DNA of 40,573 nt from an uncultured virus (IMG/VR IMGVR_UViG_3300042292_001068) (taxonomy: Duplodnaviria; Heunggongvirae; Uroviricota; Caudoviricetes): the IMG/VR virus record IMGVR_UViG_3300042292_001068. The stretch is one strand, 5' to 3'. Of the stretch, positions 1 through 40,363 are shown in pieces (within the stretch, counting starts at the first letter, position 1; the number at the start of each line of letters is the position of its first letter). Below the pieces are notes generated by a model. That model ran no database searches and was not told the origin of the DNA. It was given only the letters and a program-made list of their open reading frames with translations. The position numbers and the translations under genes were made by a program.

Positions 1-398
1 AAAATAACATATTGATAATCTACACCTTTTTCTTTACGATTAAAGTTTATACCATTATCTGAATGAATATTCGTATCAATCCATTGGTTAATTTCAACAC
101 CTCTCGGAATAGATAAATGAATTTTCTTTGTCCTATCAATATATTGGTATGCACGAATGGTAACACCCACAATTAAATCATAAAACCAAAATCCTTCTTC
201 TTTCATAAACTCAATAGTCGTTTCTAAATCCCATTTTCTCCACGAAGAACTTAAAACAATTTTAGCACCTGTCGAATCAATAATGTGTTTCAATAATTCC
301 TGTTTTTCATCTTCTATTTTCCATTCGCCACCAACACCCTCAATACTTTTAGGGGTAGCCAATACACCATCAATGTCTAAAAAAATATACTTTTCCAT
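1..398 (-). CDS. HAD-superfamily phosphatase (Swiss-Army-Knife RNA-repair HAD type); 3' end truncated by the window
   Basis: Not in the ORF track. Manual translation from ATG 398: MEKYIFLDIDGVLAT...KIVLSSSWR...PRGVEINQWI...YQYVI, giving HAD motif I DxDGV plus the SSSWR and RGxEI motifs. Confidence 0.8.
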   Translation of the reverse strand, partial: MEKYIFLDIDGVLATPKSIEGVGGEWKIEDEKQELLKHIIDSTGAKIVLSSSWRKWDLETTIEFMKEEGFWFYDLIVGVTIRAYQYIDRTKKIHLSIPRGVEINQWIDTNIHSDNGINFNRKEKGVDYQYVI

Positions 399-399
399 C

Positions 400-693
400 T
401 TAATTAATTCTTTCAAAAATATGACCAATAAATTCTCCGTTTTGATAACGATAAGAACCAACATACTTGCGTTCAACTCCCATATCATTCGGTATCGGAT
501 GACCTGTACCAAATAATTCAAAATACCTATTTTCGTATTCTTCTTCCAAAGGATAAACTAATCCCCAAATACAAGGGAGATTATTCGCATCAATATCAAC
601 ATAAAGTAGTTGAGTATTTATAGGCATTTTAATCTCAAATCTACCAACGAAACCCCTGTCGGTAGTGCAAAATTTCCAAACTTCTTGATTCAT
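400..693 (-). CDS. conserved phage hypothetical protein
   Basis: 97-aa ORF packed in the minus-strand operon; MP...IWGLV...R.F..FGTGH pattern typical of a small phage family. Confidence 0.7.
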   Translation of the reverse strand: MNQEVWKFCTTDRGFVGRFEIKMPINTQLLYVDIDANNLPCIWGLVYPLEEEYENRYFELFGTGHPIPNDMGVERKYVGSYRYQNGEFIGHIFERIN

Positions 694-3902: not shown

Positions 3903-6900
3903 ATGGCTACCAAAAAAATAAATTTTGATATTGAATCAAGGGAAGGTGAAGAAGATAGAACTACAATATCAATTAATGGAATTGGTGAAGTTGTTTTAGT
4001 TGAAACATTTCCCGAATATGAATTTTTAGAAGATGTTGGTGAAGATGGACTTGAAGAATTAAATGTTGAAGAAGGAGATTTAATTGGTAAAATAGAACAC
4101 CTTGAAATTGAAGATGAATATAAAGGACAAGGTTATGCAAAAATATTAATGAACAAAGCAATAGAATTAGCAAAAGAAAAAGGTTTAATGCCTTTATACT
4201 TAAATGCTTCTCCTATGGGTTCAAAAAGATATGGACTTGATGTTGATGATTTAACAGGGTTCTATGAAAGTTTAGGATTTGAAGTGTTTTTACGACAAGG
4301 TGGAAATAATTTAATGATATTAAAAGATACTTATAAAACAGGTGGCGAAACAAAAAATAAAATTATGGCAAAACAAATTAAAATTCAATTTGAAGATAAT
4401 TACGCTGATGGTGGTGTAACATATTCTGAATGGTCAAAATGTAATATTTGGCAAGGACAATTTAATGATTGGATGAAAGATGGAAATGTTTCTAAAAATG
4501 CCGATGGTACTTATTCCACGCAGGATGCACAATACACAAATAGTTTGAAAGGTATAAGTGGATTGAAAAAGTATTTCTATAATGAATTTATTAAAGGACA
4601 ATATGCAGATGGTGGAAAAGCCGTAAAGAAATATGTTGTAGTTGGAGAAGTTTACGATGGTGGAGAAGTATGGAAAGAAACATTTGATAATTTAGATGAA
4701 GCACTTGATTTAGCAAGAGAAATACAATATGGTTGGACAGACGATGGAACATATTATTTAATTACTATTTACAACGAAACAGGTAAAAAAGTAGCCGAAA
4801 TATCAGACGACAAGTATTTTAATGAATTAACCGAAAATAAATTATTCAAGAAATTTGATTTAAGTGCAGATACTAAAAAAACAAGACAAATTGAAAATGA
4901 AAAATTAAATGGGTATAAATTCAAATTAGAAGTTCGTATTGCAGATGGGGGGGCAACAGGAATATTTGAAAAAACATTTGATTCCATTTTTGATGTAATG
5001 GATAAAATGAATACATATTATGAAGAAGATTATTACGCTTTAATAAATGGTAAAGATTTAGATTATTGGGGAGAACAATATTCCGAAATTAATGCAAGTA
5101 GAAATTTTATTAAAGGAAAATATGGTTGGTCTTTCGTAAAAGAAAATAATTATTGGATAGCACAAGACGATTATGAAAATTATCATATTGTAAGAATGGA
5201 AAAAGGAAAACCTGTTTCTAATTCGTCAATTACAAAAGGTGCTTTAAAACAAATAATGGAATTAGAAGCACAAAAAAAGTATTCGGAAAAACCTAAACAT
5301 AATAATTCACTTTCCGATATGAAAAAAATATGGGATAAGTTGAGTAAAAATTATAAGGAAAGAGAAGATATAGCATTTCTTATAGGTTATTATGGTGGGT
5401 TATTAAGCGATATAGTGCCGAATAAATGGGATGATATAGATAAAGGCACTCAAATAGATATTATGAACGCATATTTTGGTCAAACCGAAGAACAAAAACA
5501 AAAAAGAATAAATGAATACAGAAAACGACACGAAGCATTAGTAAAAGAACATAAATCTTTAAGAAATCTTTATGGCATTAATAAAAGAGAATTTAAGTTG
5601 TTTGGAATAAAAATTTTTGAACAAGGTGGTTCACTTGATAACAAACATTTAATTGCCAAAGCGATTGAATATGTTACAGGTTATGCCGTTGATACTGATA
5701 CGATACAAGATGAAGCGAATAATTATTCTTTTAAATACAAAGGAAGAAATGTTTGGAGTACGCTTAATTCTAAATTGGTTAATGACACAATTCGTATGCA
5801 CAGGAAATCATTAGAAAGCAGATATGCAGAAGGTGGTTCAGTTGGCAAAGGATATAATGTATTTAATTATACGGATAATATTTATGCTACCGATGAAGTT
5901 TTCAAAACAAAAAAATTAGCAAATGATTTCATAAGAGAATTTAGAAATAGATTTTCTAAACAAGGTTATTATAGAGATAATCAAATGAATAAAATAGCCG
6001 TTGAAGATATTGACTTATTGGCTATACCTTCTGATTTTAATCCATTTGGTAAATACGAAGATGGTGGCAGAACTATGGAAAATAGAGCAAAAAAACAGGC
6101 GAGAAAAGATATTAAAACGCATTTGTATAGACCACAAGCACCATATCAATCAGTAGAAAAACCTTCGGAAGAATGGGAAAGATATGAATTGCCGTATGAT
6201 ACAAAAATGCAATATGATTTTGAACCCGATTCATTTTCAGCAGAAAATAAAAGATATTCAGAATACGCAAAAGGTGGGGAAGCAGGTTTTGATAATGAAG
6301 GAACTTCAATGGTGCTATATCACGAAAAGAACGGAAATTGGCTTGTACCAAAAGGGCAGGTTTATTTATATCTTTATGATGTTGAGAATAGTGGTAGTAA
6401 ATTAGGTAAAGAATTTGATTGGGTATTTTATCCATTGACTGCACCGATTATGGCTTGGCAAAGTGGTTATATTCCACCATTGAAAAAAATATGGACTAAA
6501 AAATTCCAAAAAGACCATAAAGGTTCAGAGCATTTATTAGGTGTAATTAAAGCATATTTAATTGAAGAAGATGGTAAAAAAGAATTATTTATTGATATGA
6601 TGTCGGTAAACCCTACTAAAAAGAAAAAGGGTATTATGTCTTATATGATTAAAGAATTAAGAGAATCATTTAATTTATCGCAAGACCAAGTTACATTTAG
6701 CGACCTTACAGATGAAGGTAAAAAATTCGTTGAGAAAAAAACATACGCTGATGGTGGTGAAACAAGTGGACTTATTACAGATGAACAAGTAAAAGATTTG
6801 TCATTCAAAATTAAGATTAAAAATGTTCCACTTCAAAAAGGAGTTTTACTTCACGAAATTGTTACTCTTGAAGAATTTGATTTAGGCGATGAAAAAAATA

Positions 6901-7802
6901 TAAATTTCTATCCATTCCATTTAATTTATGGAGATTCTTCTTTGGCAATTTTTGATGCGTTTGGAGTTGATGAAGTTGCAGGGTTAAAAAGAGAAGATGC
7001 CGAAAAGAAAATTAATGAATTAAAAGCACAAGGTAAAACTGAAAAGGATGGTTCATTTATGGCAGGTTTAACAAATTATGTTGGTGATAAATTATTTATG
7101 TTTTTCAATGTAGCAAGATTAAGTTACGAAGGATTTGCAAATAGAGTATTACCACACGAAGCGTTACATTTATCACGAAGTTTAATTTCATTATATAAAA
7201 ATGATTGGGTTCGTGAAAATCTAAACACTCCTAAATGGTGGGAAGATAAAAGAGCCGTTTTTGTTGATATGGGTGATTCAAACGAAGAATTTTTTGCCGA
7301 AACATTAGAAAGAACTACTGCTATTGCTATGGATGGATGGTATAGAGTTACAGGTCAGAAATGCGTTGTTGAGAAAAACAAAACATACGCTGATGGTGGT
7401 AGTGCTGATGAAGAAATGAATTTCTTTGTAGTAATTAATGAAGATGATAAAAATTATAACAAAGTTGGATATTCTTTGGGTGAAACGATTACTGATAAAG
7501 AAGGAAATGAATTTGAGAAATTGTATTTTGAAAATCAAAAATTACCCAAAAAATATAGTGTTAATGATATATCTTATTTAAACGATAGGGGTGAATTTTC
7601 AAAAAAAAATAAAATAACAGGAACAACAAATTTTGTTATTTTAGTTGATTACCAAGAAAAAGAACCATATTTCTATATTTATAATTTAACAGAAAAATTC
7701 GTAGCAACAGAAGGTTATAATTGGAGTTCAATAATAAAATCAGCAGGTATTGAAAATTCTATTTATGCACATCAAATATTCGATGGTGGTGGAGATATTT
7801 AA
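3903..7802 (+). CDS. 1299-aa modular polyvalent-type protein: GNAT acetyltransferase, second GNAT-like module and HEXXH zincin-like module, separated by (Y/F)xxGG motifs
   Basis: GNAT1: IEHLEIEDEYKGQGYAKILM...FYESLGF. GNAT2: FIDMMSVNPTKKKKGIMSYMI...LTDEGKKF. Zincin: PHEALHL...EEFFAE. Start moved to ATG 3903. Confidence 0.85.
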   Translation: MATKKINFDIESREGEEDRTTISINGIGEVVLVETFPEYEFLEDVGEDGLEELNVEEGDLIGKIEHLEIEDEYKGQGYAKILMNKAIELAKEKGLMPLYLNASPMGSKRYGLDVDDLTGFYESLGFEVFLRQGGNNLMILKDTYKTGGETKNKIMAKQIKIQFEDNYADGGVTYSEWSKCNIWQGQFNDWMKDGNVSKNADGTYSTQDAQYTNSLKGISGLKKYFYNEFIKGQYADGGKAVKKYVVVGEVYDGGEVWKETFDNLDEALDLAREIQYGWTDDGTYYLITIYNETGKKVAEISDDKYFNELTENKLFKKFDLSADTKKTRQIENEKLNGYKFKLEVRIADGGATGIFEKTFDSIFDVMDKMNTYYEEDYYALINGKDLDYWGEQYSEINASRNFIKGKYGWSFVKENNYWIAQDDYENYHIVRMEKGKPVSNSSITKGALKQIMELEAQKKYSEKPKHNNSLSDMKKIWDKLSKNYKEREDIAFLIGYYGGLLSDIVPNKWDDIDKGTQIDIMNAYFGQTEEQKQKRINEYRKRHEALVKEHKSLRNLYGINKREFKLFGIKIFEQGGSLDNKHLIAKAIEYVTGYAVDTDTIQDEANNYSFKYKGRNVWSTLNSKLVNDTIRMHRKSLESRYAEGGSVGKGYNVFNYTDNIYATDEVFKTKKLANDFIREFRNRFSKQGYYRDNQMNKIAVEDIDLLAIPSDFNPFGKYEDGGRTMENRAKKQARKDIKTHLYRPQAPYQSVEKPSEEWERYELPYDTKMQYDFEPDSFSAENKRYSEYAKGGEAGFDNEGTSMVLYHEKNGNWLVPKGQVYLYLYDVENSGSKLGKEFDWVFYPLTAPIMAWQSGYIPPLKKIWTKKFQKDHKGSEHLLGVIKAYLIEEDGKKELFIDMMSVNPTKKKKGIMSYMIKELRESFNLSQDQVTFSDLTDEGKKFVEKKTYADGGETSGLITDEQVKDLSFKIKIKNVPLQKGVLLHEIVTLEEFDLGDEKNINFYPFHLIYGDSSLAIFDAFGVDEVAGLKREDAEKKINELKAQGKTEKDGSFMAGLTNYVGDKLFMFFNVARLSYEGFANRVLPHEALHLSRSLISLYKNDWVRENLNTPKWWEDKRAVFVDMGDSNEEFFAETLERTTAIAMDGWYRVTGQKCVVEKNKTYADGGSADEEMNFFVVINEDDKNYNKVGYSLGETITDKEGNEFEKLYFENQKLPKKYSVNDISYLNDRGEFSKKNKITGTTNFVILVDYQEKEPYFYIYNLTEKFVATEGYNWSSIIKSAGIENSIYAHQIFDGGGDI

Positions 7803-7974
7803 TAATTATATCGGAAAGAATGTAAAGCGTAAAAACCTTCGTGGTGGTTACAGACATTACATTGTTTTATCGTATTCAGATTTGCTCGGATATACTTTAT
7901 TTGAGCCAAAGACAGATACACGATGTAATGTTAAATCCGAAGTATTTGAAAAGCAATTTAAAATAGTAAAATGA
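7783..7974 (+). CDS. hypothetical protein
   Basis: Short ORF, probable ATG at 7783; ATGA overlap with the next gene. Confidence 0.55.
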   Translation: MVVEIFNNYIGKNVKRKNLRGGYRHYIVLSYSDLLGYTLFEPKTDTRCNVKSEVFEKQFKIVK

Positions 7975-8559: not shown

Positions 8560-9831
8560 ATGAGAAACGAAATTAAATCTCAAATTGAAAGAATAAAGGA
8601 TTCCCAATTAAAATATAGTTCTGATAAATCCAAAGAAAATAAAAAGGAATTAGAATATCTGATTAATCAAGTTTATGATGAACTCGTTAGGGGTACTGCC
8701 AATAAAGAAGAAATTGAGGAAAATACATATATTATTTCTAATGTTTTACCTATTGAAATAAAGTCATTCAATAGTAGTTGGTATATTAGTTCTTTATTAC
8801 TTGAAATACCACAAGTTGAATTAAATAAATCTCTTTGGAGTATTTTAATCAAGGGTGATTTAATTAAAAAATCAACTGCAAAAAGAGTTGATTATACAAT
8901 TAGTCCATTTAGCACAGGATTAGATAAGATTTTTAAGAAAATCGTTTCAGATGATGATTTAAACCCAAAATTACAAGGTATTAATTTTGAAGATGGTACT
9001 GCCACAGGAACGGATGCTCATAAACTTCTGCATATCGTTGCCGATAACAATAGTCAAGTAAATTACGAAACGAATGGGAATTATTATTTGGTTTCGGATA
9101 TGGAGAAAATTTATAATAAATATAATAAAGATGAAACAGATAAAACATTCAAAGAATATTACGAAAAAGTAGGTGATATAGGTCAAAAGTTTCCTATTTG
9201 GATAAAAATTGTACCACAAGATTATTTGTTTTATAAGAGTTTCGATTTGGATTATCTGAATAGTGTTTTATTAACCCTATACAAGAATAAATTAGCCAAT
9301 ACACAAACAAATGCCGTTGCGTTTGAATTTGATACAAAAGATGGCAAATTTCATATTGGTTTTAATACAGAACTATTATCTAATTTATGCGAATCAATGA
9401 TAATGGCAGGAGAAAGAATGGTTAATTTTTATTTTATATCTCCAACAAGGGGAATAGTAATAATGAATCAACAAATTAAATTTCCTAAAATAGCCAAAGA
9501 AGATTTTTATATGAAAAATAATTTTGGTTTGGCTATGCCTGTTATGTTGGATGAAAGTAGCGTTAAGGAAGGGGTTAATTATCCTTTGATTAAATACAAT
9601 GACACATACGATTTTGATATTCGTATAGGTGCTTCTCCGAGTTACAATTTGGTTCAAGGGGAAAATAAAACCAACGCAGTAAAAGAAAATAAAACAGAAT
9701 CAAAATCAGATACATACAGACAATTAATTGAAGGTTATGAATTGGCTTTGGAAATTGAAACTGATAAGAAAAAAATCAAAATGTATAATGATTTGATTGA
9801 AGGATATGAATTAGCATTAGAATTAGAATAA
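8560..9831 (+). CDS. divergent DNA polymerase III beta-clamp-like protein with a C-terminal LIEGYELALE tandem tag
   Basis: LQGINF...TGTDAHKL (cf. ATDGHRL), KFPIWIKIVP (cf. FPxYxxVIP), IGFNTELL (cf. IGFNxxYL) and LAMPVML (cf. LIMPVR), in DnaN order. Confidence 0.65.
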   Translation: MRNEIKSQIERIKDSQLKYSSDKSKENKKELEYLINQVYDELVRGTANKEEIEENTYIISNVLPIEIKSFNSSWYISSLLLEIPQVELNKSLWSILIKGDLIKKSTAKRVDYTISPFSTGLDKIFKKIVSDDDLNPKLQGINFEDGTATGTDAHKLLHIVADNNSQVNYETNGNYYLVSDMEKIYNKYNKDETDKTFKEYYEKVGDIGQKFPIWIKIVPQDYLFYKSFDLDYLNSVLLTLYKNKLANTQTNAVAFEFDTKDGKFHIGFNTELLSNLCESMIMAGERMVNFYFISPTRGIVIMNQQIKFPKIAKEDFYMKNNFGLAMPVMLDESSVKEGVNYPLIKYNDTYDFDIRIGASPSYNLVQGENKTNAVKENKTESKSDTYRQLIEGYELALEIETDKKKIKMYNDLIEGYELALELE

Positions 9832-9941: not shown

Positions 9942-10706
9942 TTGAAAACTCTCAATAAGCAGGAAATAATAAATTATGTATTGGATAATCCATCCTACTT
10001 TGAATTTATGCCACACGAAATTCAAGGTCGTTTAAATACATCTGAAAATTTATCTATTACCGAAATACAAAAAAAGATTATTGAAGAAGTTTATTCGCCA
10101 TTGACACAAGCAGAAATAGATAAGATAACACCTGCCACTCAAAAAGCAGAAAGTGAATTGTACCCTATTTTACACAAAATTGGAATTACAATAAGTAAAC
10201 CTATGAATTGGGTAATAATTAAATCAAATAATGGCTTTAATTGGAATGTTTGCTATACGCAGGGAAGTGTTATTATTCTTTCTCAAAAAAGAATTGATAC
10301 AGACGATAATTTAGCAAGAACATTGGCTCACGAAATGATTCATATTTATCAGCGTAGATACCCAAAATTATTTAGGGAGTTATATAAGAAAAAAATGAAT
10401 TTCACAGATTTCAAACCTACGGAAAAACAATTACAAAAAATTGATGAATTAGGTATTGATAAAATATATGTGGAAAATCCCGATAATTGCCAATTAGGTT
10501 TAATGGTTTACAATAAAAAGTATTTACCAATTACGATTATTTTACCTAACGAAAAACAACCTATGAATATCGTTCTTGAATTAACAGATGATGATGTTAT
10601 TTGGGATAAAGAAAAGAAGCATCAGATGAACGCATACGATAAGGTACGGCTTGACCAACCGAATGAAATGTTTGCATATATGGTAACAAAAAATATAAAT
10701 TATTGA
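9942..10706 (+). CDS. HEXXH zinc metallopeptidase-like protein
   Basis: TLAHEMIHIYQR...ENPD...QPNEMFAY (candidate third ligand Glu); TTG start. Confidence 0.75.
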   Translation: MKTLNKQEIINYVLDNPSYFEFMPHEIQGRLNTSENLSITEIQKKIIEEVYSPLTQAEIDKITPATQKAESELYPILHKIGITISKPMNWVIIKSNNGFNWNVCYTQGSVIILSQKRIDTDDNLARTLAHEMIHIYQRRYPKLFRELYKKKMNFTDFKPTEKQLQKIDELGIDKIYVENPDNCQLGLMVYNKKYLPITIILPNEKQPMNIVLELTDDDVIWDKEKKHQMNAYDKVRLDQPNEMFAYMVTKNINY

Positions 10707-11504: not shown

Positions 11505-13553
11505 ATGAGTAATAGTGTTTTTAGGGTAGTAAGTGCAGGAACAACATTCCTTTCGCCTACTGACTTCTATGTAAAAATAGATTCATCCACAGGTGCAGTT
11601 CAAATTGTTCTGCCAAATAGTGCGAGTATATTCCAAAATACAAATGCTACAAATACGGCATACAATTATCTCGGTGTTCGCTTTTTAGATTCATCAAACA
11701 ATGCTTCTGTTAATAATATAACAATTACAGGTTTTGAAAATGATTTAATTAATGGGCAATCAAGTATAGTTTTAGATACCGATGGTGTAGGTGGTATTTT
11801 AACTTTAATTGGTGAAGGTCAATGGTCTTATCAAAATAATTCGTCAAGTGGTGGTGGTGTTATCCAAGAAGATACAGGTATTGGTTCATCTGTTCGTATT
11901 GATAGCGGAAATACTGCGAGTGCAGATTATTCAACGGCATTAGGTGTTAGTAACAATGTAAATTCACTTGCTTCCTCTGTTAATGGGAAAGATAACTCTA
12001 TTGGAACAACATCTATTATTTGCGGTGCTGATTTAGGTATTCCTCAATTTATTGGTGGTGGGTGTGCTAATAGCATCGGAAATACTAATTCAAATTATTA
12101 TAGTGGTGGAAATGTTATCGTTGGTGGAAGTAACAATAATACAGGTGTCGGTGATAGTTCCTTAAATTTTATTGGTAGCGGTAGAAATCATACCATAGAT
12201 GGTTCTCTATCATTTATCGGTGGTGGAATACAGAATAAAAGTATAGGCGGTTCGGATGGAACATTTATTGGTGGTGGTAATGGTAATACGATAGGAACAT
12301 TATCTTTGGGTTCATTAATTGTTGGTGGTACAGGTAATGTTATTCAGAATAAATCTTGCGGTTCATCAATACTTGGTGGGGGTAAAAATACAATTATTTG
12401 TGCATTGAGTTCTAACATATTGGGTGGTGTTAATAACGATATTAATAGGCACGAATCAGCAACTATTGGCGGTGGTAATGGTAATTCAATAAGTAACATT
12501 TGCCTTACCAAAGATAGTGCGTTTTCTACAATTAGTGGTGGATTAAATAATGACACCTGTAATGGTTCGAGAGATGTAATTGGTGGGGGTTCATTTAATT
12601 CGCAAATATCCTGTAATAATTCTACATCACTTTGTAATACATTTGCATTAAGTAGTGGAACAATTAGTGGTGGGTATCGTAACACAATTACTCATTGTAT
12701 TGATGTTGCATCCGTTGGTGGTTCTCTTGCATTAGGACACAATACTATTGCAGGTGGTTGTTGCAATAAAGCAGGTAAAACAATATCTTCATATCAAATA
12801 TCGGGATATTCTTCCGTTGGTGGGGGTGCTTGTAATTTAGCAACAGGTGGTGTTAGCACCATTTCGGGCGGTGGCACGAATACGGCAAGTTCAGATTATG
12901 GAACAATCGGTGGGGGATATTTTAATACGGCAAGTAATTATAGAGCAGGTGTATTTACAGGAAGTCAAAACACGGCAAATGCTTGTTCATCCGTAATTGG
13001 TGGCGGTGCATTAAATATAACAACACTTGGTAGTTTTTCTTCCATTTTGGGCGGTTTGTCAAATGCAACGGCATCTGCATATTCTTTTATCGGTGGCGGT
13101 TTTAACAATACTATAACGGCATCGGGATATACTTCAACTATCGGTGGCGGTGGAAACAATACAATTTCATCTTACTATGCTTTCGTAGGTGGCGGTAGGC
13201 AACATTCAGTTTCGGGTCAGTACGCAAGTGTAATAGGGGGGCGAACAAATGTGGCAAGTGGTAATTACTCTACTATTTCGGGTTTAAATAATACAGGAAG
13301 TAATTCGTATAGTGTTGTAATGGGTCAAAATAATATTTCAAATGGAGTAGGTTCATCTATATTTGGTCGTGGAAATGGAGATTGTGGTAATTCTGACACT
13401 CATATTTTAGGGTGTAATATACCTGCAAACAGAGGTGGAACATTATTTTCTAACAGATTATCTGTAACTCAATTAGATAATTGCACGGCATTACCACCGC
13501 AATTCGGTCTTTATTATGACACGACTACTTGTGTAGTATATTATGTACCTTAA
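11505..13553 (+). CDS. fibre/adhesin protein 1: shared N-terminal anchor domain plus Gly-rich (S/F)IGGGxxN beta-solenoid repeats
   Basis: First ~110 aa closely similar to 20500 and 33780; about 30 imperfect ~14-15-aa repeats; TATTTTTG box at 11468-11475. Confidence 0.8.
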   Translation: MSNSVFRVVSAGTTFLSPTDFYVKIDSSTGAVQIVLPNSASIFQNTNATNTAYNYLGVRFLDSSNNASVNNITITGFENDLINGQSSIVLDTDGVGGILTLIGEGQWSYQNNSSSGGGVIQEDTGIGSSVRIDSGNTASADYSTALGVSNNVNSLASSVNGKDNSIGTTSIICGADLGIPQFIGGGCANSIGNTNSNYYSGGNVIVGGSNNNTGVGDSSLNFIGSGRNHTIDGSLSFIGGGIQNKSIGGSDGTFIGGGNGNTIGTLSLGSLIVGGTGNVIQNKSCGSSILGGGKNTIICALSSNILGGVNNDINRHESATIGGGNGNSISNICLTKDSAFSTISGGLNNDTCNGSRDVIGGGSFNSQISCNNSTSLCNTFALSSGTISGGYRNTITHCIDVASVGGSLALGHNTIAGGCCNKAGKTISSYQISGYSSVGGGACNLATGGVSTISGGGTNTASSDYGTIGGGYFNTASNYRAGVFTGSQNTANACSSVIGGGALNITTLGSFSSILGGLSNATASAYSFIGGGFNNTITASGYTSTIGGGGNNTISSYYAFVGGGRQHSVSGQYASVIGGRTNVASGNYSTISGLNNTGSNSYSVVMGQNNISNGVGSSIFGRGNGDCGNSDTHILGCNIPANRGGTLFSNRLSVTQLDNCTALPPQFGLYYDTTTCVVYYVP

Positions 13554-14248: not shown

Positions 14249-15170
14249 TATAGAATTAGAACAGGAAGAATTACTTTTTATTAAAGGCGGTTTAATTGAA
14301 AATAGCGAAGGCGGTATTTACAATTCATCCTATTTTGAATTAAATGAAAAAAAGTATCTTATAAGTCGGGTAGAGAAAAATAATGAACTTGACAGGAAGG
14401 AAAGGCATACTCAACATAGACCTGTTATTTTTTTATTGAATGATGATTTCACAATAAATTCAAGTATTGATTTGGATTTTATTTATGATGGAGATATTGA
14501 TTCAAGGTTAGAAGAATTAGGGGTACAATTAAGTGGTTATCAAAATTACCGAATAGAAGATTATAGAGTATTCAGTTGGAATAATGAACTATGGTCAAAT
14601 CACATACTAAATGTTGGAAGAACAAGACCTGTATTATCTAAAATAAACTTTGAATCCAATAAATTAGAGCATAAAAAAATTAAGGTTTTTAGATTGCTCA
14701 ATAATATAGAGAAAAATTGGCTATTTTTTGAGCATAAATCAAAATTGAAATTTATCTATTCCATAAATCCATTTGTGGTTATGTCAAGTGCCGATGGATA
14801 TGAATTTCAAAAAGAATTAATTATTAAACTTCCATTAGATAAAAAACACTTTTGGTCGGGTTCAACAAATCCTGTTTCGTTTGACGATAAAAACTATATC
14901 TTCTTCGTTCATTATAGAGATGAAAATAAAGTATATTGTCATCACCTTGTTTTAATAGATAAAGAAACTCTTGAACCAATTTTAATATCTGAAAATCCTA
15001 TTTTTAGAGAAGAAGAAACAGAAGGGTTCAAAAATGGTGTTTTATATTTAATGTCGCATACAAGAATAAATGATAGCGATTGGATATTTTCTTTTGGATT
15101 CGGGGATTATAATACCAAATTGATAAAAATAAAGCACGAAGAATTAATCAATCAAATTCAGCCGATATGA
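14214..15170 (+). CDS. five-bladed beta-propeller carbohydrate-active enzyme (GH130 / beta-mannosyltransferase-like)
   Basis: YNSS, IEDYRVF, EKNWLFF, YSINPF, SGST and SFGFGD motifs; start may be GTG 14235. Confidence 0.65.
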   Translation: MKKYHLKVKSINIELEQEELLFIKGGLIENSEGGIYNSSYFELNEKKYLISRVEKNNELDRKERHTQHRPVIFLLNDDFTINSSIDLDFIYDGDIDSRLEELGVQLSGYQNYRIEDYRVFSWNNELWSNHILNVGRTRPVLSKINFESNKLEHKKIKVFRLLNNIEKNWLFFEHKSKLKFIYSINPFVVMSSADGYEFQKELIIKLPLDKKHFWSGSTNPVSFDDKNYIFFVHYRDENKVYCHHLVLIDKETLEPILISENPIFREEETEGFKNGVLYLMSHTRINDSDWIFSFGFGDYNTKLIKIKHEELINQIQPI

Positions 15171-15889
15171 TAAAGAGAATACTTGTTAGGGGTGAAAGAT
15201 GCACAGGAACAAATTATTTATTTAAACTGATTGAAAAAAACCTAAATACAATTACGCTATGTAGTGATTTGGGTTGGAAACATTCTTATATCAATGTGTT
15301 CAATAAAAACCTGTATCTCCAAGATGAATACCTAACAATTTTTATGTTCAGAAATCCTGTTGATTGGATTGGCTCAATGTATTATCATCTTTGGCATTTT
15401 GATAGAAAAGAATATCCAACTATATCATCATTTATTCGGGAAGAACCAAAACAGATAATTCAAGGATTAAGGGAATTGGTTGAAAAATATCCTATGGACA
15501 CGGAATTGTATTGGGAAAGGCATCCTTTTACATACGATAAGCCAACTAACATTTGTGATTTAAGGAATTGGAAAAACGAGAACTTTTTATCTACACCAAA
15601 AATACTTGGAAATGTAATGTTTATCACTTATGAAGAATTATACTCAAACCCAAAGGGAATAATCAATCAAATCAACGATAAATATGTTCATCAGAAAATT
15701 GGGAATTTTGAAAATGTTACCGATTATAAAGGGATTGAAAGAAAGGGGCAATACTTTCCAAAAAAATATGAATTAATATCAGAAGAAGATTTTCAATTTA
15801 TTAAATCAAACCTAAATTGGGAATTGGAAAATGCAATCGGATATACGGAAGAAAATGTGAATTATTACTACGATAAATCTAAAAAATAA
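15167..15889 (+). CDS. PAPS-dependent sulfotransferase-like protein
   Basis: GERCTGTNYL (5'-PSB-like), FRNPVDWIGSMY (3'-PB-like), ITYEEL. Confidence 0.7.
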   Translation: MIKRILVRGERCTGTNYLFKLIEKNLNTITLCSDLGWKHSYINVFNKNLYLQDEYLTIFMFRNPVDWIGSMYYHLWHFDRKEYPTISSFIREEPKQIIQGLRELVEKYPMDTELYWERHPFTYDKPTNICDLRNWKNENFLSTPKILGNVMFITYEELYSNPKGIINQINDKYVHQKIGNFENVTDYKGIERKGQYFPKKYELISEEDFQFIKSNLNWELENAIGYTEENVNYYYDKSKK

Positions 15890-17116: not shown

Positions 17117-17950
17117 ATGGTAGAGCAGATTTTTTTTCAAAGTAGTATGCCCCGAAGTGGTAGCACTATTTTTCAGAATTTAATGGGGCAGAATCCCGAT
17201 TTTTATGTAACGCCAACATCGGGAGTTTTAGAATTGATTTTTGGTGCAAGAGCCAATTTCAGCACATCACCCGAATTTAAAGCACAAGACAATTCTTTAA
17301 TGGAAGCAGGTTTTAAGGAGTTCTGCAATAAAGGAATGTATGGTTTTTATAATGCGGTTACAGATAAGAAATATGTATTAGATAAATCAAGGGGATGGGG
17401 AGTTTATAGACCTTTCTTAAATGAAGTTTATCCTAATCCTAAAATTATATGTATGGTTCGTGATTTGCGTTCTGTTGTCGCTTCCTACGAAAAGATATAC
17501 AGAAAGAATCAATTACGCCAAGACCCAATAAGAAACGATGCCACAGGCACAGGAACAACTATTCACAAAAGGGTAGATGAATGGGTGCATCCAACAAATA
17601 CAATCGGTAGAGCCGTTGAAAGAATATTTGAAATAAACCGATTGGGTTATCAAGATAAAATATTATTCGTTAAATATGAAGATTTATGTCTTTATACTGA
17701 AATGGAAATGAAGCGAATTTATGAGTATTTAGAATTGCCGTATTTTCAGCACGATTTTGATAAGATTGAGCAAATTACAAGTGAAGATGATGCAATCTAT
17801 GGACTTACAAAAGACCTTCATACGATAAGACCTAAATTAGAATTAAATAATCCCGATTATCACGATATTTTAGGTAAAGATGTATGTAGTTGGATTTACA
17901 ATACTTATAAATGGTATTTTGATATGTTTCAATACAAGGGCAATTATTAA
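17117..17950 (+). CDS. sulfotransferase (Sulfotransfer_1/3-like)
   Basis: SMPRSGSTI, DKSR.W, VRDLRSVVAS and VKYEDL motifs. Confidence 0.85.
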   Translation: MVEQIFFQSSMPRSGSTIFQNLMGQNPDFYVTPTSGVLELIFGARANFSTSPEFKAQDNSLMEAGFKEFCNKGMYGFYNAVTDKKYVLDKSRGWGVYRPFLNEVYPNPKIICMVRDLRSVVASYEKIYRKNQLRQDPIRNDATGTGTTIHKRVDEWVHPTNTIGRAVERIFEINRLGYQDKILFVKYEDLCLYTEMEMKRIYEYLELPYFQHDFDKIEQITSEDDAIYGLTKDLHTIRPKLELNNPDYHDILGKDVCSWIYNTYKWYFDMFQYKGNY

Positions 17951-18585
17951 TACCCAAAGTATTCAATATACTCTTTGAAATATTCCCTTACGATTGATTC
18001 AGTTGTTTCATTATATAATGACATATAATCGTCTGTGTATCTTCTTTTAGATGCTACATAATGACCTAATGTGCGGTTTGACACAGGTAGTTTTAAGTGG
18101 CTTGATATTCTGTCTATATCTTCCTGTAAGTTTTCGTATCTGATAAAATCATCAATAATTATTGAATTGTTTATTTTGTATATTTTTGAATCTCTCTTTT
18201 TTATTTTCTCTAAATTGGATGAATCAAGTATAAATTCATCAAATGTTAAATCTTTATTCTTGTGATAATAGAAATAATTACTGACTACCAAATCAAAAGG
18301 ATTTCTAACATTACAGAATTTATAATATGAATTGAAAATATCATCACCAATGTTGCTCTTTAATTTTTTAGCAGGTTGATGGTTAATGTATTTCAAATCT
18401 TCTTCACGAAATAGTTTCTTAAACTTTCTTGCACCAATTATTCCTTTTTCAGAAATAGTTTCTAATCTCTCTCTTTGTTCAGTTAGATTATCTGCACAAT
18501 ATTGCTCAAAATAAACATCCGTTGTAGTTGATGCAGTTTTGAATGTCTTTAAAAAAATAAACTTGTGTTCAAAAGAAATAAGCAT
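17947..18585 (-). CDS. sulfotransferase (Sulfotransfer_2-like)
   Basis: FIFLKTFKTASTT, VRNPFDLVVSNY and IRYENLQED; convergent, with overlapping stop codons. Confidence 0.85.
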   Translation of the reverse strand: MLISFEHKFIFLKTFKTASTTTDVYFEQYCADNLTEQRERLETISEKGIIGARKFKKLFREEDLKYINHQPAKKLKSNIGDDIFNSYYKFCNVRNPFDLVVSNYFYYHKNKDLTFDEFILDSSNLEKIKKRDSKIYKINNSIIIDDFIRYENLQEDIDRISSHLKLPVSNRTLGHYVASKRRYTDDYMSLYNETTESIVREYFKEYIEYFGY

Positions 18586-20499: not shown

Positions 20500-23037
20500 A
20501 TGAGTAATAATTCATTTCGTTTAGTTGGGGCAGGTGTTAATTTTTTATCACCTACTGACTTCATAGTTCAAGTAGATACATCGGCAGGTGCAGTAACACT
20601 AATTATGCCTAAAATATCAACTATATTGGATTCATATACTACTCTTTATCAGTATATGGGTATTCGTTTTATTGATATTTCAAACAACGCATCTGTAAAT
20701 AATATAACAATCGAAGGTTTTGAAACAGATACGATAAATGATGTTACAAGTATAGTTTTAAATACTGATGGTGCAGGTGGTATGGTTTCTTTGATTGGTG
20801 AAAGCCAATGGTCATATCAACAAAATTCAACAAGCGGTGGAAGTCCTATTATACCAACATTACAAGAAGTATTGGATAATAATCACGACCTTGTTGATGG
20901 TAATAATTTTCAAGGAACTTGTGCAGGTGAAGGAAGCGTAGGAATAAATGTAATTGGTATAGGAACTAATTCTGCTTATAAAAACACAGGTAGTTGTATT
21001 ACTGCAATAGGAACTAATTCCGCTTGTAGTAGTAGTGGAGATTTTGTAACTGCATTAGGTTATAATTCTGCCTATAATAATACAGGTGGTTTTGTAACTG
21101 CATCGGGAAATTCTTCTGCGATGGGTAATCAAGGTTTTAATGTAACCGCTTTTGGTTCTCAATCTGCGTATTTAAACAATGGGAATTGCGTTACTGCTAT
21201 CGGTGTTAATAGTGCTATTAGAAACGCAGGTTTTAATGTTATTGCATCGGGTACTCAATCTGCATATTGTAACACAGGTAATATTGTTGTTTCGATTGGT
21301 TCTAATTCTGCATATTGTAACACAGGTAATATTGTTGTTTCGATTGGTTCTAATTCTGCTTATTACAATACAGGAAGCCAAATAAATGCCATTGGTTTTA
21401 ATTCTGCTTATTGTAATACAGGAAATGAAGTAACTGCATCGGGTTATGAATCTGCTTGTCTTAATACAGGAAATCTTGTAAATGCTATTGGTACTAAATC
21501 TGCATTTCAAAATACAGGAAATCTTGTAAATGCTATTGGTACTAAATCTGCTTGTCTTAATACAGGAAATCTTGTAAATGCTATTGGCGAAGGTTCTGCA
21601 TATCAAAACGCAGGTACTTATGTTAATGCTATTGGTACATTCTCGGCAAGAATTAACACAGGAAGTTGCGTTAATTCTATCGGTACATTCTCGGCATATC
21701 AAAACACAGGTGGTTTTGTAAATTCAATGGGATGTGGTGCTTCCCGAAGAAATGCAGGAAGTTGCGTTAATGCTTTTGGAACTTATTCGGCATATTGTAA
21801 TACGGCTAATAATGTAAATGCGTTAGGTGTCAATTCTGCATTTAAAAATACAGGTTGTAATCTAAATGCTTTGGGTTCTCAAACTGCTTTCTGTAATTTT
21901 GGTACAGATGTAAATGCTCTTGGAATTAATTCGGCATATTGTAATAACGCTAATAATCTAAATGCTCTTGGAAGTTATTCTGCTTTTTGTAATAAAGGTT
22001 ATTGTGTAAATGCTATTGGTTCTTGTTCAGCATATAGAAACACAGGTAGTTGTGTAAATGCTATGGGTGTGTCATCCGCATATTGTAATACAGGTTGTAA
22101 TGTAAATTCTATTGGTTATCGTTCAGCAGAATTAAATACAAGTAATGAAATAAATGCTCTTGGAAGTTTTTCTGCTTTTTTAAATACAGGTTATAATGTC
22201 AATGCTATTGGAAATCTATCAGCAAATTGCAATACAGGTTGGTATGTAGATGCTATTGGTTATCGTTCAGCATATTGTAATACAGGTTGTGATGTAACTG
22301 CATCGGGTTATCGTTCAGCAGAATCAAATATAGGTAAATGTGTAACTGCCATTGGTCGTTTATCTGCATATTTCAATCAAGGTGATTATTCAAATGCTAT
22401 TGGTTCTTGTTCAGCAAGACAAAATACAGGTTGTCAAGTAAATGCTATTGGAAGTAATTCTGCATATCAAAACACAGGAAATTATGTAAATGCTATTGGA
22501 TTACAATCAGCATTATTAAATACAGGTGCTTATTCAAATGGTATAGGATATGCTACGCTTCAAAGAAACACAGGAAGTTATGTAAATGCTATTGGTGTCA
22601 ATACTGCTTTCTGCAATATAGGTAGTCAAATCAATTCATTTGGTATTAGTTCAGCAGTTTGTAATAGCGGTAGTAATGTAGATGTTATTGGTACTAATTC
22701 TGCATATCGTAATACAGGAAGTGAAGTTATTGGTATTGGTTATCAATCTTTATATTGTAACACAGGTTCTTCTATTGTTGCATTAGGTAAAAATGCAGGA
22801 AGAAAAAATTGTGCGACATATACCACAATGATTGGCGAAAGTGCAGGGTATAATGCAACATTAGATACAGGTAATGCTATTGCAGGTCAATTTATTATTG
22901 GAAATCCTACCTTACCAAGTTACTTAAATTATGCTACGGCAGTTGCGAACATAACTATTGGTGCAGGGGCAGTTGCTTGTAGTACATACTTATTCTACAA
23001 TCAATCAAATTGCTCTATTGAAGCAGTAAGATTATAA
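20500..23037 (+). CDS. fibre/adhesin protein 2: shared anchor domain plus about 45 Cys-rich 14-aa beta-solenoid repeats
   Basis: Repeat consensus VNAIGxxSAYxNTGxx; PTLQEVLDN linker; shared N-terminal domain. Confidence 0.85.
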   Translation: MSNNSFRLVGAGVNFLSPTDFIVQVDTSAGAVTLIMPKISTILDSYTTLYQYMGIRFIDISNNASVNNITIEGFETDTINDVTSIVLNTDGAGGMVSLIGESQWSYQQNSTSGGSPIIPTLQEVLDNNHDLVDGNNFQGTCAGEGSVGINVIGIGTNSAYKNTGSCITAIGTNSACSSSGDFVTALGYNSAYNNTGGFVTASGNSSAMGNQGFNVTAFGSQSAYLNNGNCVTAIGVNSAIRNAGFNVIASGTQSAYCNTGNIVVSIGSNSAYCNTGNIVVSIGSNSAYYNTGSQINAIGFNSAYCNTGNEVTASGYESACLNTGNLVNAIGTKSAFQNTGNLVNAIGTKSACLNTGNLVNAIGEGSAYQNAGTYVNAIGTFSARINTGSCVNSIGTFSAYQNTGGFVNSMGCGASRRNAGSCVNAFGTYSAYCNTANNVNALGVNSAFKNTGCNLNALGSQTAFCNFGTDVNALGINSAYCNNANNLNALGSYSAFCNKGYCVNAIGSCSAYRNTGSCVNAMGVSSAYCNTGCNVNSIGYRSAELNTSNEINALGSFSAFLNTGYNVNAIGNLSANCNTGWYVDAIGYRSAYCNTGCDVTASGYRSAESNIGKCVTAIGRLSAYFNQGDYSNAIGSCSARQNTGCQVNAIGSNSAYQNTGNYVNAIGLQSALLNTGAYSNGIGYATLQRNTGSYVNAIGVNTAFCNIGSQINSFGISSAVCNSGSNVDVIGTNSAYRNTGSEVIGIGYQSLYCNTGSSIVALGKNAGRKNCATYTTMIGESAGYNATLDTGNAIAGQFIIGNPTLPSYLNYATAVANITIGAGAVACSTYLFYNQSNCSIEAVRL
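21259..21590 (+). repeat. near-identical 42-nt coding tandem repeats inside fibre 2
   Basis: TCTGCATATTGTAACACAGGTAATATTGTTGTTTCGATTGGTTCTAAT-type unit twice; AATACAGGAAATCTTGTAAATGCTATTGG three times at 42-nt spacing. Confidence 0.85.
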
Positions 23038-23258: not shown

Positions 23259-23714
23259 TTATAATTGCATTGGTTCTTCTAACCAAATACTGAAATCATC
23301 GCCAACCCTCTCCCGAACAAATCGCAGGGCATCTGCAATCGTTGGATATTCAGTCCGTGTAATACCTTCCCAAGCACGACCATCATTCAGTAAATCGAAT
23401 CCACCTTGAAAGGAATTATATCCCCTATCTTCATCATACTTGCGTATAATGTAATAGCGTGGTATCTGATTAGAAAGCGAACTCCATCTTTCAACATCTG
23501 TTGAGTAGTCCATCACTTCGTAGCCACCTAAAAACAACCTGTTTTCAGAAACAACTACTTCATCGCTTGAATAACCTTCGGGCATTAATTGAATACCACT
23601 ATAAGATGTTCCATCAAAATCGTGAATTTCAACAAAAAATTCATCCTTCGATGTAACTATGTATCTCGCACCTGTTTGGGTAGTGCAAACCTCATTTAAA
23701 CGAAACCCTTTCAT
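23259..23714 (-). CDS. hypothetical protein
   Basis: 151-aa ORF, visibly less AT-rich than its flanks. Confidence 0.75.
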   Translation of the reverse strand: MKGFRLNEVCTTQTGARYIVTSKDEFFVEIHDFDGTSYSGIQLMPEGYSSDEVVVSENRLFLGGYEVMDYSTDVERWSSLSNQIPRYYIIRKYDEDRGYNSFQGGFDLLNDGRAWEGITRTEYPTIADALRFVRERVGDDFSIWLEEPMQL

Positions 23715-35706: not shown

Positions 35707-36936
35707 ATGATTGAAAAATATAATTTCAAGCCATCACTAACTTTTGATGAAAAGTACGGAACATCCGTTTCTAAAACTGATTGGGTATTTCCTAATGGAT
35801 ATACTGCCGATGAAGTTTATGATAAAATTATTTATCCTTTAATAAACAGAGAAAACAAAAAGAATTGGGAAAGGGTTGATAATTATATTGCTAAATTAAA
35901 TAGGTCGAATTTTGATTATCCTAAATTTAATTCATTGTCCGAAGATGATTTATGGAGTGTGCTTAATGGTATGGTAAGTGGATTTAATTATGACGACATT
36001 GTTTATTTTATTACTAAATGGGATTATACCAATCCTGTGGAAAGCAATAAAAATAAAAAAACACAAAATGAGTTAGTAAAATTAGGTGTAAATGAAAGAG
36101 ATATACGATGGATTGTTTCTCAAAAAACATTTCTCAAATTAAAAGAACAATTAAAGAATAAAAATATTCGTTTTGATGGTGGTGGAGATGTAAATAAATT
36201 CAAAGAATTAATCGAAGGATATAAGTTAGCGTTAGAAGTTGAACAGGATGCTGAAAAGATAAAACACTATCAAGATATTATTGATGGATATGAAATTGCT
36301 TTGGAATTAAATGGTAATACTACAAATGATTTAATAGAGAAGTTAGTGGAAGATTACGATGAAAACGAAAAACCTGTAATTGCAATTATTGATTGTGTTG
36401 GTGTTCACGAAATTAAAATAAAAAACTTTGATGAAAAAAAAGCAACGGATATAATGAATAAATATCTGAAACAATATAAAATTCAAGTTATTAAATGGTC
36501 AAGTAGTTCGTGTGGTTATGCTTATACGAAAAGAAATAAAGAAGGTTATTATAGAATTAAAGTTCCCAAGCCAACAGATTCAGATAGATTTGGAGTAGTA
36601 ATGCACGAAATTTATCATTGTATAGATAGTGGCTTTACTAAACCAAGTTATTTGGCAGAGTTTAAATGTGATAAGTTCGCACTTGATAATTTAAAGGAAA
36701 TGAATTTAGACACAACTATTTGGGAGAAAAGAATGAAGTGGCATATTTTGAGTAGAGTTGCTATGGCTACCAATCGTGGACATAAAAATATAAATAAAGA
36801 TGTTGAGAATTTTTATCCCGATGTTGATTTTAAATCGTGGTATGGTAAAAAAGTTTTTGTTGGAGTTAGACCACCAAAAGGAATTGGGTATAAGAACCCT
36901 ACATATTGGGATTACATTTACATAGATATTGATTAA
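35707..36936 (+). CDS. modular protein: N-terminal domain, FDGGG, LIEGYxLALE tag, HEXXH zincin-like domain
   Basis: RFDGGGDV then ELIEGYKLALEVEQDAEKIKHYQDIIDGYEIALEL; VMHEIYHC...LAEFKCD. Confidence 0.8.
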   Translation: MIEKYNFKPSLTFDEKYGTSVSKTDWVFPNGYTADEVYDKIIYPLINRENKKNWERVDNYIAKLNRSNFDYPKFNSLSEDDLWSVLNGMVSGFNYDDIVYFITKWDYTNPVESNKNKKTQNELVKLGVNERDIRWIVSQKTFLKLKEQLKNKNIRFDGGGDVNKFKELIEGYKLALEVEQDAEKIKHYQDIIDGYEIALELNGNTTNDLIEKLVEDYDENEKPVIAIIDCVGVHEIKIKNFDEKKATDIMNKYLKQYKIQVIKWSSSSCGYAYTKRNKEGYYRIKVPKPTDSDRFGVVMHEIYHCIDSGFTKPSYLAEFKCDKFALDNLKEMNLDTTIWEKRMKWHILSRVAMATNRGHKNINKDVENFYPDVDFKSWYGKKVFVGVRPPKGIGYKNPTYWDYIYIDID

Positions 36937-39643: not shown

Positions 39644-40363
39644 ATGCTACCATATTTAATAGCAGGGGCAATCGGTTACGGAATTGCTAAATTAATTGAA
39701 GATGATGAAACACCTAAATATGAATTTGGTGGATTTACAAATGAAGAAGAATTAATTATTGATGAATTAAAAAACAATAAATTATTGGGTGATTATTTAA
39801 CAGGTCAATTCATAGGTAAGAGTAATGAAGCATTATATAATTCATTAAAAAAATATATTCCACTTAAAAATAAATTCCCTAAAATCTTCAAACCAAAATC
39901 AAAAATTTTTTATAGGACTGATACTATTTTAAGAACTCCACAATTAGAATATGAAATAATGGATATGGGTATAGGACAAAGAGATTTACCTTTAATTAGA
40001 CATTTATCTCATTTTTCTGCTGATTTATTAGAAAATGTAAAATACGAACCGAAGAATAAATTACAGGGATGGACTTCCGATAAGGATTTTGTTTTCGAGC
40101 ATTGGTATAATGTATATGTAATGGGTCAAGGTGGTGATTATGTTTTTGATGAAGAAAATTATTTTTCCTGCGTATATGTTTTGAAAGACACAACGGATTT
40201 ATTATTTAATGAGATTTTTTTGGATGAATTAAGAAGTTATTTCAATGGAAATGGTGATGAAAGTGAAAGTTTAAGATTAGGTAGTGAAGTTAATTGCGAT
40301 GTAATTATCATTACCAATTCTGATTTATGGTTAATGGAAGAAGAAGAATATGATAACGACTAA
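39644..40363 (+). CDS. protein with a Gly-rich hydrophobic leader, YEFGG, and a possible ADP-ribosyltransferase-like domain
   Basis: MLPYLIAGAIGYGIAKLI...KYEFGG; IFYRT...QGWTSD...ESE. The ORF is solid; the ART call is weak. Confidence 0.6.
   Translation: MLPYLIAGAIGYGIAKLIEDDETPKYEFGGFTNEEELIIDELKNNKLLGDYLTGQFIGKSNEALYNSLKKYIPLKNKFPKIFKPKSKIFYRTDTILRTPQLEYEIMDMGIGQRDLPLIRHLSHFSADLLENVKYEPKNKLQGWTSDKDFVFEHWYNVYVMGQGGDYVFDEENYFSCVYVLKDTTDLLFNEIFLDELRSYFNGNGDESESLRLGSEVNCDVIIITNSDLWLMEEEEYDND

Follow-up and report, generated by a model that had tools for sequence, protein, structure and literature searches.

The window analyzed here is a stretch of 40,573 nucleotides from an uncultured virus of the Caudoviricetes (IMG/VR record IMGVR_UViG_3300042292_001068), and one of its genes encodes a large protein, here termed P0001. 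Our analysis gives good support to the view that P0001 is a polyvalent protein, whose exchangeable modules meet at a specific and conserved linear motif with the core [YF]xxGG. A sequence-only reading of the window had described it as a polyprotein of motif-delimited modules, matured at the motif into separate injected effectors; the modular architecture and the position of the motif at the joints are borne out, whereas no protease of the types suggested with that reading was found among the 62 open reading frames (ORFs) of the window. As to the role of the motif, the reading that we favor is a protease site, at which the chain would be cut and the modules freed, and we assign it a probability of roughly 0.4.

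The motif in P0001 and its relatives

The longest ORF of the locus begins at a TTG (3882); P0002, a 97%-identical protein of 1299 amino acids (aa) from another contig, begins with MATKK, as does P0001 in the form used here. Translation of 3903–7802 reveals 14 GG sites (or 15, taking the GGG as two), and [YF]xxGG is matched by ten of them (Table 1), and the count and all ten coordinates in the sequence-only reading are correct. The enrichment over shuffled sequences, which that reading had proposed as a check, is also evident: composition-preserving shuffles of P0001 contained 0.97 motifs on average and 7 at most, and 0/20,000 reached the observed 10, while Tyr or Phe occupies position -3 in 10/14 GG sites (binomial p = 2.7e-7). 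The idea that the motif recurs by chance, as an effect of the composition of a Gly- and Tyr-rich protein, has the shortness of the core pattern on its side and nothing else; with no shuffle matching the count and with the motif conserved in the set of 121 related proteins and placed at the seams between modules, it is already refuted, and we give it practically no weight. Two other GG sites, VYDGG (4650) and IADGG (4938), had been proposed as variants of the motif. Both are present in P0001, but the models place them in the turns of beta-hairpins within the folded domain of module 3 (strands 144–149/156–161 and 239–246/252–259 in model numbering), so that they differ in kind from the motif.

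We found 161 relatives of P0001, the best 120 of which are listed and together with P0001 make up a set of 121 metagenomic proteins. The listed relatives share only parts of P0001 (50–98% identity), come from contigs with lengths up to 144 kb, and carry ART-PolyVal, RadC-JAB, PBECR5, ArdA, GNAT and several DUF domains, which is the repertoire of the polyvalent proteins of Iyer et al. (PMC5512222). In the 121 proteins [YFW]xxGG occurs at 988 sites in 147,817 aa (6.7 per 1000 aa), most frequently as YADGG (172 occurrences). The logo of 855 distinct contexts reads [KTR]-[YF]-A-[DKNG]-G-G-x-[VITA], with 0.61 bits at position -1, 3.2 at the aromatic position 0, 1.6 at +1, 0.87 at +2, then the Gly pair, and 1.7 at +6, between uninformative flanks. 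No relatives of the P0001 locus were found by tblastn or megablast among the INPHARED phages, by peptide patterns in IMG/VR or among GTDB genomes, and no description of the motif was found in the main texts of the literature searched.

A leader of the form M-x-K-Q-x-K-x-x-F-x-D-x-YAxGG is common to 14 N-termini. Among the relatives, the motif is found near 29/109 N-termini and 13/95 C-termini, which is about the background density of the family. We therefore dropped the idea of a general terminal leader or tag, as protein ends show no excess over this density.

For the position of the motif relative to folded domains we used two AlphaFold models, covering residues 780–1299 (alignment of 36 sequences, mean predicted local distance difference test score (pLDDT) 60) and 101–800 (40 sequences, mean pLDDT 55). 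The folded parts are residues 172–233, 577–640, 794–949 (the second GNAT domain, GNAT2) and 969–1155 (a module with the sequence HEALH), and the low-pLDDT blocks that hold the motifs lie between them: all ten strict motifs are in 10-residue blocks with mean pLDDT of 25–41, one of them straddling a block of 71. In the relatives, the 23 stretches matched by Pfam families (2508 aa) contain no motif, as compared to 16.8 expected. The comparison of motifs with domain boundaries, which had been suggested together with the sequence-only reading, thus came out in its favor, with the motifs in low-confidence linkers and outside all 23 Pfam stretches, and the three boundaries that it had named are in place. 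The first GNAT domain (GNAT1), said to end at YKTGG, has its Pfam match at residues 58–128 and the motif at residue 144; GNAT2, with its fold at approximately 794–949, lies between YAKGG (788) and YADGG (948); and the HEXXH module, folded at 969–1155 with HEALH at residue 1085, lies between the two YADGG motifs at 948 and 1162.

The same joints are the places where similarity between relatives begins and ends. We collected the end points of BLAST high-scoring segment pairs (HSPs) between P0001 and 119 relatives, excluding the near-identical P0002 and ends at most 15 residues from a terminus, and found 150/338 internal end points within -3..+8 of a strict motif, versus 8.5% expected; counted as distinct positions, 47/178 are at the motif (p = 1.7e-12). 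Cutting the 121 proteins at the motif yields 1007 segments of at least 35 aa, which group into 265 families, each of constant length; at least five members are present in 37 of these families. All nine modules of P0001 recur (11–68 members) beside many different neighbors, e.g. the family of the GNAT2 module has 21 different families as upstream neighbors and 36 as downstream neighbors. We also recovered six loci from metagenomes. On either side of the polyvalent locus, gene order is conserved between the window and L003, with 50–92% identity, while the locus itself varies in its number of genes, from one in the window to two in L003 and three in L002.

Several modules occur both fused and alone. 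Two solo copies, without the motif, are encoded in the window itself (7783–7974 and 23259–23714, Table 1), and in P0009 the module that matches the latter is preceded by YSVGG. Among solo proteins of the HEALH module (174–250 aa), 7/7 keep HExLH and 0/7 have the motif; of the newly returned embedded HEALH modules, 6/6 are preceded by a motif at a distance of a few residues, and most are immediately followed by another. Because solo copies and most free ends are devoid of the motif, it belongs to the joint and not to the module, and as the solo copies exist without it, the fused forms have free-standing equivalents.

P0001 stops two codons past its last motif, and P0002 and P0012 end alike. The likely ATG of the 7783–7974 gene is inside the codons of that motif (GAT GGT), in the +1 frame, and to judge from the reading frames the overlap at 7783–7802 resembles a junction that a change of frame has split. 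Residues 102–337 of the ORF at 8560–9831 (423 aa) are 37–39% identical to a module near the N-terminus of P0099 and P0120, which by sequence similarity makes these proteins another solo-versus-fused pair.

The motif in other phages and its possible functions

A search of IMG/VR with an exact DNA pattern of K-Y-A-D-G-G-x-V retrieved at least 122 stretches. Among the matches listed there are 114 distinct ORFs, from contigs with a G+C content (GC) of 0.32–0.66; at least 63 of them have two or more motifs and at least 32 have three or more, with many of the ORFs cut short at the ends of the retrieved flanks. We scanned 43 ORFs against PHROGs, namely the 14 richest in the motif and 29 of the 31 others of at least 250 aa (two duplicates were left out). 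The scan identified ten tape-measure proteins, three internal-virion/lytic-transglycosylase proteins, two other lysin-type proteins, one DNA-ejection protein and one tail-spike-like protein; three ORFs matched only families with no function assigned, 23 had no match, and none of the 43 fell into replication, regulation or another named class. KYADGGxV is present in many tape-measure proteins of uncultured phages. The motif also occurs in pairs only 4–7 residues apart, and up to 9 motifs are found in 520 aa of a protein rich in Lys and Gly. One search for named-phage relatives of the motif-rich IMG/VR proteins returned only common lysin and ART domains, and another returned no match. In phage proteins of high GC with a lytic transglycosylase, L010 (2305–6021) and L044, a longer joint of the form YAEGGLAxLDxKYADGGTVR is repeated on both sides of an ART-like domain.

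Similar peptides are present in tail proteins studied by others. T5 pb2 is reported to be cut after R1127 (PMC10038345), and we found that AEGG, one of only two AxGG in its 1219 aa, follows R1127 directly; the cut splits the C-terminal enzyme domain from the rest, so that the border bears A-x-G-G, like the joints of P0001. Lambda gpH loses a C-terminal piece of ~14 kDa from a Gly-rich region, and the account of this processing in PMC12617516 states that the site and the catalyst are unknown. Within this Gly-rich region the protein has FATGGFT at 733 and YATGGYV at 778, and a fragment starting at 720–734 would have a computed mass of 13.9–12.5 kDa. In crAss001 gp45 (21 GG in 842 aa) two motif-like sites follow resolved segments: FAEGG (260) comes after the helix 214–245 and FAYGG (559) after the domain 425–552.

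A specific, short and conserved motif implies a partner that reads it, since conservation of this kind is not expected of a plain spacer. We favor a protease in this role, because a reader is implied, because the modules have solo equivalents, because T5 pb2 is cut at such a peptide, and because processing is expected on theoretical grounds: polyvalent proteins were predicted to be processed into units (Iyer et al. 2017, PMC5512222). According to this proposal, nine independently folding modules (two GNATs, the HEALH module and six others) would be made as one chain; the motif, in a flexible linker, would be read by a protease while the virion is being assembled or once the protein has reached the host; and the cut, which may fall directly before Ala, at the position where T5 pb2 is cut, or behind the Gly pair, would free modules that other genomes make as separate proteins. 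Three parts of this scheme are inferred: that P0001 is delivered with the virion, that it is cleaved, and which protease cuts it. As unproven candidates for the protease we consider the HEALH module, the SprT-like protein encoded at 9942–10706, the HEIYH protein encoded at 35707–36936, RadC-JAB modules and a host enzyme.

A number of observations weigh against cleavage. No cleavage products have been observed for P0001 or any relative, and the search for proteases of the C5, C48, C39 and C57 types that had been suggested with the sequence-only reading returned none when the 62 window ORFs were scanned against Pfam and PHROGs. Among the 120 listed relatives, HExxH is present in only 25 and RadC-JAB in 17, and the passages on the latter domain in Iyer et al. 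(PMC5512222) regard it as nucleic-acid-directed. The solo HEALH relatives P0154 and P0157 have signal-peptide-like N-termini, which would suit an effector better than a protease of maturation and hints that members of this module family may act outside the cytoplasm. A tandem spacing of 4–7 residues is odd for a cut site. T5 pb2 is a single case and has Arg where the motif of P0001 has Tyr or Phe, and crAss001 gp45 was modeled by its authors as one chain spanning portal and tail, with no mention of cleavage or proteolysis in their article (PMC10172136). The structural support is also limited, as 44–47% of the modeled residues have pLDDT below 50 and 4/10 motifs are in long, poorly modeled stretches, where pLDDT is weak evidence, and the relatives, which have modules in common, are not independent samples.

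The motif could instead be an uncut hinge or handle for packing the cargo and threading it through portal and tail, with the conserved residues binding either DNA or a conserved virion surface, in the portal, the tail lumen or the hub, while the chain remains whole. We regard this as somewhat unlikely. It would agree well with the presence of the motif in head and tail proteins (ten tape-measure, six internal-virion, lysin or ejection proteins and one tail-spike-like protein among the 43 ORFs), with the location of the Lys/Gly-rich multi-motif proteins beside portal or major-capsid genes, with the closely spaced tandem motifs, which suit multivalent binding, and with crAss001 gp45, whose published description, as far as it concerns this protein, is of an uncut chain across capsid and tail with short segments docked. 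On the other hand, no binding partner has been identified, and the motif regions of lambda gpH (~690–817) are not resolved in the cryo-electron microscopy maps presented in PMC12617516, i.e. they are not visibly docked. The absence of the motif from solo modules and most free termini indicates that modules do not each require it as a tag, and this weakens a second proposal of the sequence-only reading, of a docking signal repeated on each module.

A reader of the motif would be dispensable if it were an evolutionary seam, an in-frame linker cassette for module swapping that is kept because only such joints give folded products. The extreme mosaicism with breaks at the motif, and a locus that varies while its flanks are syntenic at 50–92% identity, are in line with this idea, and so is the codon usage: the first Gly is encoded by GGT in 45/55 sites and never by GGA (p = 1e-9), TAC is enriched (p = 0.007), and TACGCTGATGGTGGT occurs three times in the P0001 gene. 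Still, we consider it unlikely. DNA homology cannot explain a motif that is found in phages with GC of 0.32–0.66 and in unrelated protein classes, the Ala codon and the flanking codons vary, at most ~14 nucleotides of imperfect identity are available, and neither the conserved Tyr/Phe nor the beta-branched residue at +6 is needed in a spacer. The absence of GGA is equally well explained by avoidance of GGAGG. A signal at the DNA level was rejected as the main explanation, since the codon biases fit equally well the avoidance of GGAGG and the use of accurate codons at conserved residues.

The protease reading could be taken further, to [KR]-[YF]-A-x-G-G-x-[VIT] as a general cut mark of proteins sent through the tail, read by one conserved and possibly host-supplied protease; in this broad form it is doubtful. 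If true, the mark would span polyvalent effectors, internal virion proteins and tape-measure proteins of very different phages, it would put the cut of lambda gpH at FATGG (733) or YATGG (778), and it would explain the release of polyvalent proteins into working units.

Modules of P0001 and other genes of the window

Table 1. Modules and joints of the P0001 gene and other genes discussed in the text (positions in the window)
Feature	Positions	Strand	Remarks
Polyvalent protein gene P0001	3903..7802	+	1299 aa + stop; nine modules, ten [YF]xxGG motifs
Module 1, GNAT acetyltransferase 1 (residues 1–143)	3903..4331	+	Pfam Acetyltransf_1 38.5 bits, cut-off 20.7
Double joint: YKTGG (4332), 18-aa spacer ETKNKIMAKQIKIQFEDN, YADGG (4401)	4332..4415	+	
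Module 2, small 'WMxDGNV' domain (residues 172–233)	4416..4601	+	pLDDT ~70
Joint YADGG	4602..4616	+	mean block pLDDT 37
Module 3 (residues 239–571), folded	4617..5615	+	family in 33 proteins
Joint FEQGG	5616..5630	+	mean block pLDDT 39; HSP starts and ends cluster at residues 572–581
Module 4, small alpha/beta domain (residues 577–640)	5631..5822	+	pLDDT 83–90; family in 42 proteins
Joint YAEGG	5823..5837	+	HSP end points, low pLDDT
Module 5 (residues 646–717)	5838..6053	+	family in 24 proteins; poorly modeled
Joint YEDGG	6054..6068	+	HSP end points
Module 6 (residues 723–787)	6069..6263	+	family in 14 proteins
Joint YAKGG	6264..6278	+	HSP end points, model
Module 7, GNAT acetyltransferase 2 (residues 793–947)	6279..6743	+	fold match
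Joint YADGG	6744..6758	+	21 HSPs end at residue 952
Module 8, zincin-like (residues 953–1161)	6759..7385	+	HEALH at 7155–7169, then NEEFFAE helix
Joint YADGG	7386..7400	+	model
Module 9 (residues 1167–1292)	7401..7778	+	family in 11 proteins; poorly modeled
Terminal motif FDGGG, then DI and stop	7779..7802	+	same ending in P0002, P0012
Solo module gene	7783..7974	+	module fused and motif-flanked in P0064, P0036, P0070; solo copy without motif
Conserved neighbor with HEMIH	9942..10706	+	Pfam SprT-like 22.6 bits, cut-off 25.6
Solo module gene, 151 aa, without motif	23259..23714	-	58% identical to C-terminal module of P0009
Second motif-bearing gene	39644..40363	+	N-terminal membrane-like helix, then KYEFGGFT at residue 26

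Profile searches with P0001 detected only acetyltransferase families in PHROGs, with no match to a tape-measure profile, and only GNAT families in Pfam, with no match to a polyvalent-peptidase model. Module 1, whose family is present in 36 proteins, also matches Acetyltransf_7 at residues 58–128. The double joint that follows it looks, from its sequence, like a former gene end fused to a gene start; relatives such as P0053 and P0055 begin at its internal Met with the same leader. The family of module 2 comprises 52 proteins, with a median length of 69. Module 7 is the commonest of all (68 proteins). Its model superimposes on the structure 5f46_A (Z 6.9, root-mean-square deviation 3.2 Å over 95 residues) and Foldseek also matches it to GNATs, while the Pfam score for Acetyltransf_13 (21.9 bits) is below the cut-off of 22.8.

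Module 8 is modeled with pLDDT of ~90 at residues 969–1155, with HEALH on a long helix, and HEALH is invariant in 23/23 relatives that have this module. Only 34 cluster representatives were found among 1.84 billion proteins. Sequence searches of Pfam and the PDB revealed no match to this module, and fold searches with the two-domain model that includes GNAT2 (Foldseek against the PDB and BFVD, and VIA-align) matched GNATs only. In the ESM Atlas it falls into unnamed clusters, with a hint of LPD23 at 0.89.

The sequence-only reading had also claimed that the motif marks boundaries in unrelated genes, citing YGDGG (30497), FDGGG (36172) and YEFGG (39719). The coordinates are right, but as a set these sites do not exceed chance, because outside P0001 the window contains 14 [YF]xxGG sites in 61 ORFs (11,125 aa) versus 5.5 expected, and 6/14 are FIGGG repeats of one protein (11505–13553). 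Taken one by one, YEFGG in the 39644–40363 gene is a true family-type site, FDGGG in 35707–36936 fits the extended motif and is a possible case, and YGDGG in 30263–32080 does not fit. The N-terminus encoded by 39644–40363 is common to P0037, P0101, P0102, P0105 and P0106.

The SprT-like gene at 9942–10706 has syntenic counterparts in L003 and L005, 72–78% identical to it. The protein encoded at 35707–36936 (409 aa) has a zincin-like HEIYH and no family match, and contains one motif-like site, RFDGGGDV, followed by a module with a helical pair. This pair, 'LIEGYELALEIE ... LIEGYELALELE', is encoded in the window at 9700–9831, 30263–30410 and 36190–36300, i.e. at the end of the ORF 8560–9831, at the start of 30263–32080 and in the middle of 35707–36936, and through it one protein from L003 is linked by BLAST to all three ORFs. 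The pair may be a common docking or oligomerization element.

The window is phage-like, with dense small ORFs, PHROGs matches and tail-fiber-like genes related to proteins of Tenacibaculum phages; no capsid, portal or terminase genes were recognized within it. Three successive genes, next to tail-fiber-like genes, match sulfotransferases (15167–15889, 17117–17950, and 17947–18585 on the minus strand), a row unusual for a phage, which suggests modification of glycans. The ORFs at 11505–13553, 20500–23037 and 33780–35621 each share a domain with one L003 protein; 11505–13553 contains five FIGGG/FVGGG repeats, and 20500–23037 resembles Tenacibaculum phage proteins annotated as "chlorovirus glyco repeat"; the products of all three are probably fibers or spikes. 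The ORF at 3–521 (minus strand), which runs off the end of the window, has a match of 56 bits to PF18143, the HAD domain found in "Swiss Army Knife" RNA repair proteins.

Comparison with known systems

Polyvalent proteins are thought to be the phage's first strike against host defenses. As in the proteins described under this name by Iyer et al. (PMC5512222), P0001 carries unrelated effector domains on one chain, is mosaic, and has modules for which solo versions exist. Polyvalent proteins are phage-encoded and combine 2–15 unrelated domains, several of them enzymatic; P0001, encoded in a phage-like window, has nine modules, including two GNATs and the HEALH module. The hallmark domains of the class include ART-PolyVal, MPTase, PBECR and RadC; P0001 itself matches GNAT families only, in module 1 by profile and in module 7 by fold, while the mosaic relatives with which it shares modules carry ART-PolyVal, PBECR5, RadC and ArdA. 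In the passages of PMC5512222 searched, MPTase is named as a peptidase and no motif is given for junctions or cleavage, with no occurrence of "linker", "GG motif" or "glycine", whereas in P0001 the joint peptide is defined. This makes the question of how one chain becomes several enzymes directly testable. With the motif, giant proteins of this type can easily be divided into modules, and new anti-defense modules can be sought in metagenomes. Its distribution suggests that one rule may hold for several classes of tail-delivered proteins, including T5 pb2, which is cut at this peptide, and lambda gpH, whose cleavage site and protease have been unknown for fifty years.

The processing of tape-measure proteins resembles P0001 in that T5 pb2 and, as far as its processing has been described, lambda gpH have A-x-G-G at the border between the ruler and the C-terminal piece. 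These two proteins are tail rulers, whereas P0001 is a multi-effector protein, and we found no homology between them and P0001. Cargo protein 1 (gp45) of Bacteroides phage crAss001 (Bayfield et al. 2023, PMC10172136) is a virion protein that is likewise rich in GG, with motif-like sites by resolved segments, but the parts of that article which describe it present an uncut protein without enzyme modules.

In adenovirus and African swine fever virus (ASFV) a Gly-Gly pair also marks where one unit ends and the next begins in a polyprotein that is delivered with the virion. The sites of adenain-type enzymes (the adenovirus protease and ASFV pS273R) are [MIL]xGG, with a hydrophobic residue at P4. 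A cut after GG in P0001 would place the aromatic residue at P5 and Ala at P4, which differs from the clan CE site; moreover, no clan CE protease (C5/C63/C48) was found by Pfam or PHROGs among the 62 window ORFs, and the host is bacterial. The double-glycine leaders cut by C39 peptidases are N-terminal, whereas the motifs of P0001 are internal and repeated, and the window has no match to C39 or to an ABC transporter. The defined joint motif adds a new feature to a class of proteins already known, the polyvalent proteins, and does not represent a new kind of system.

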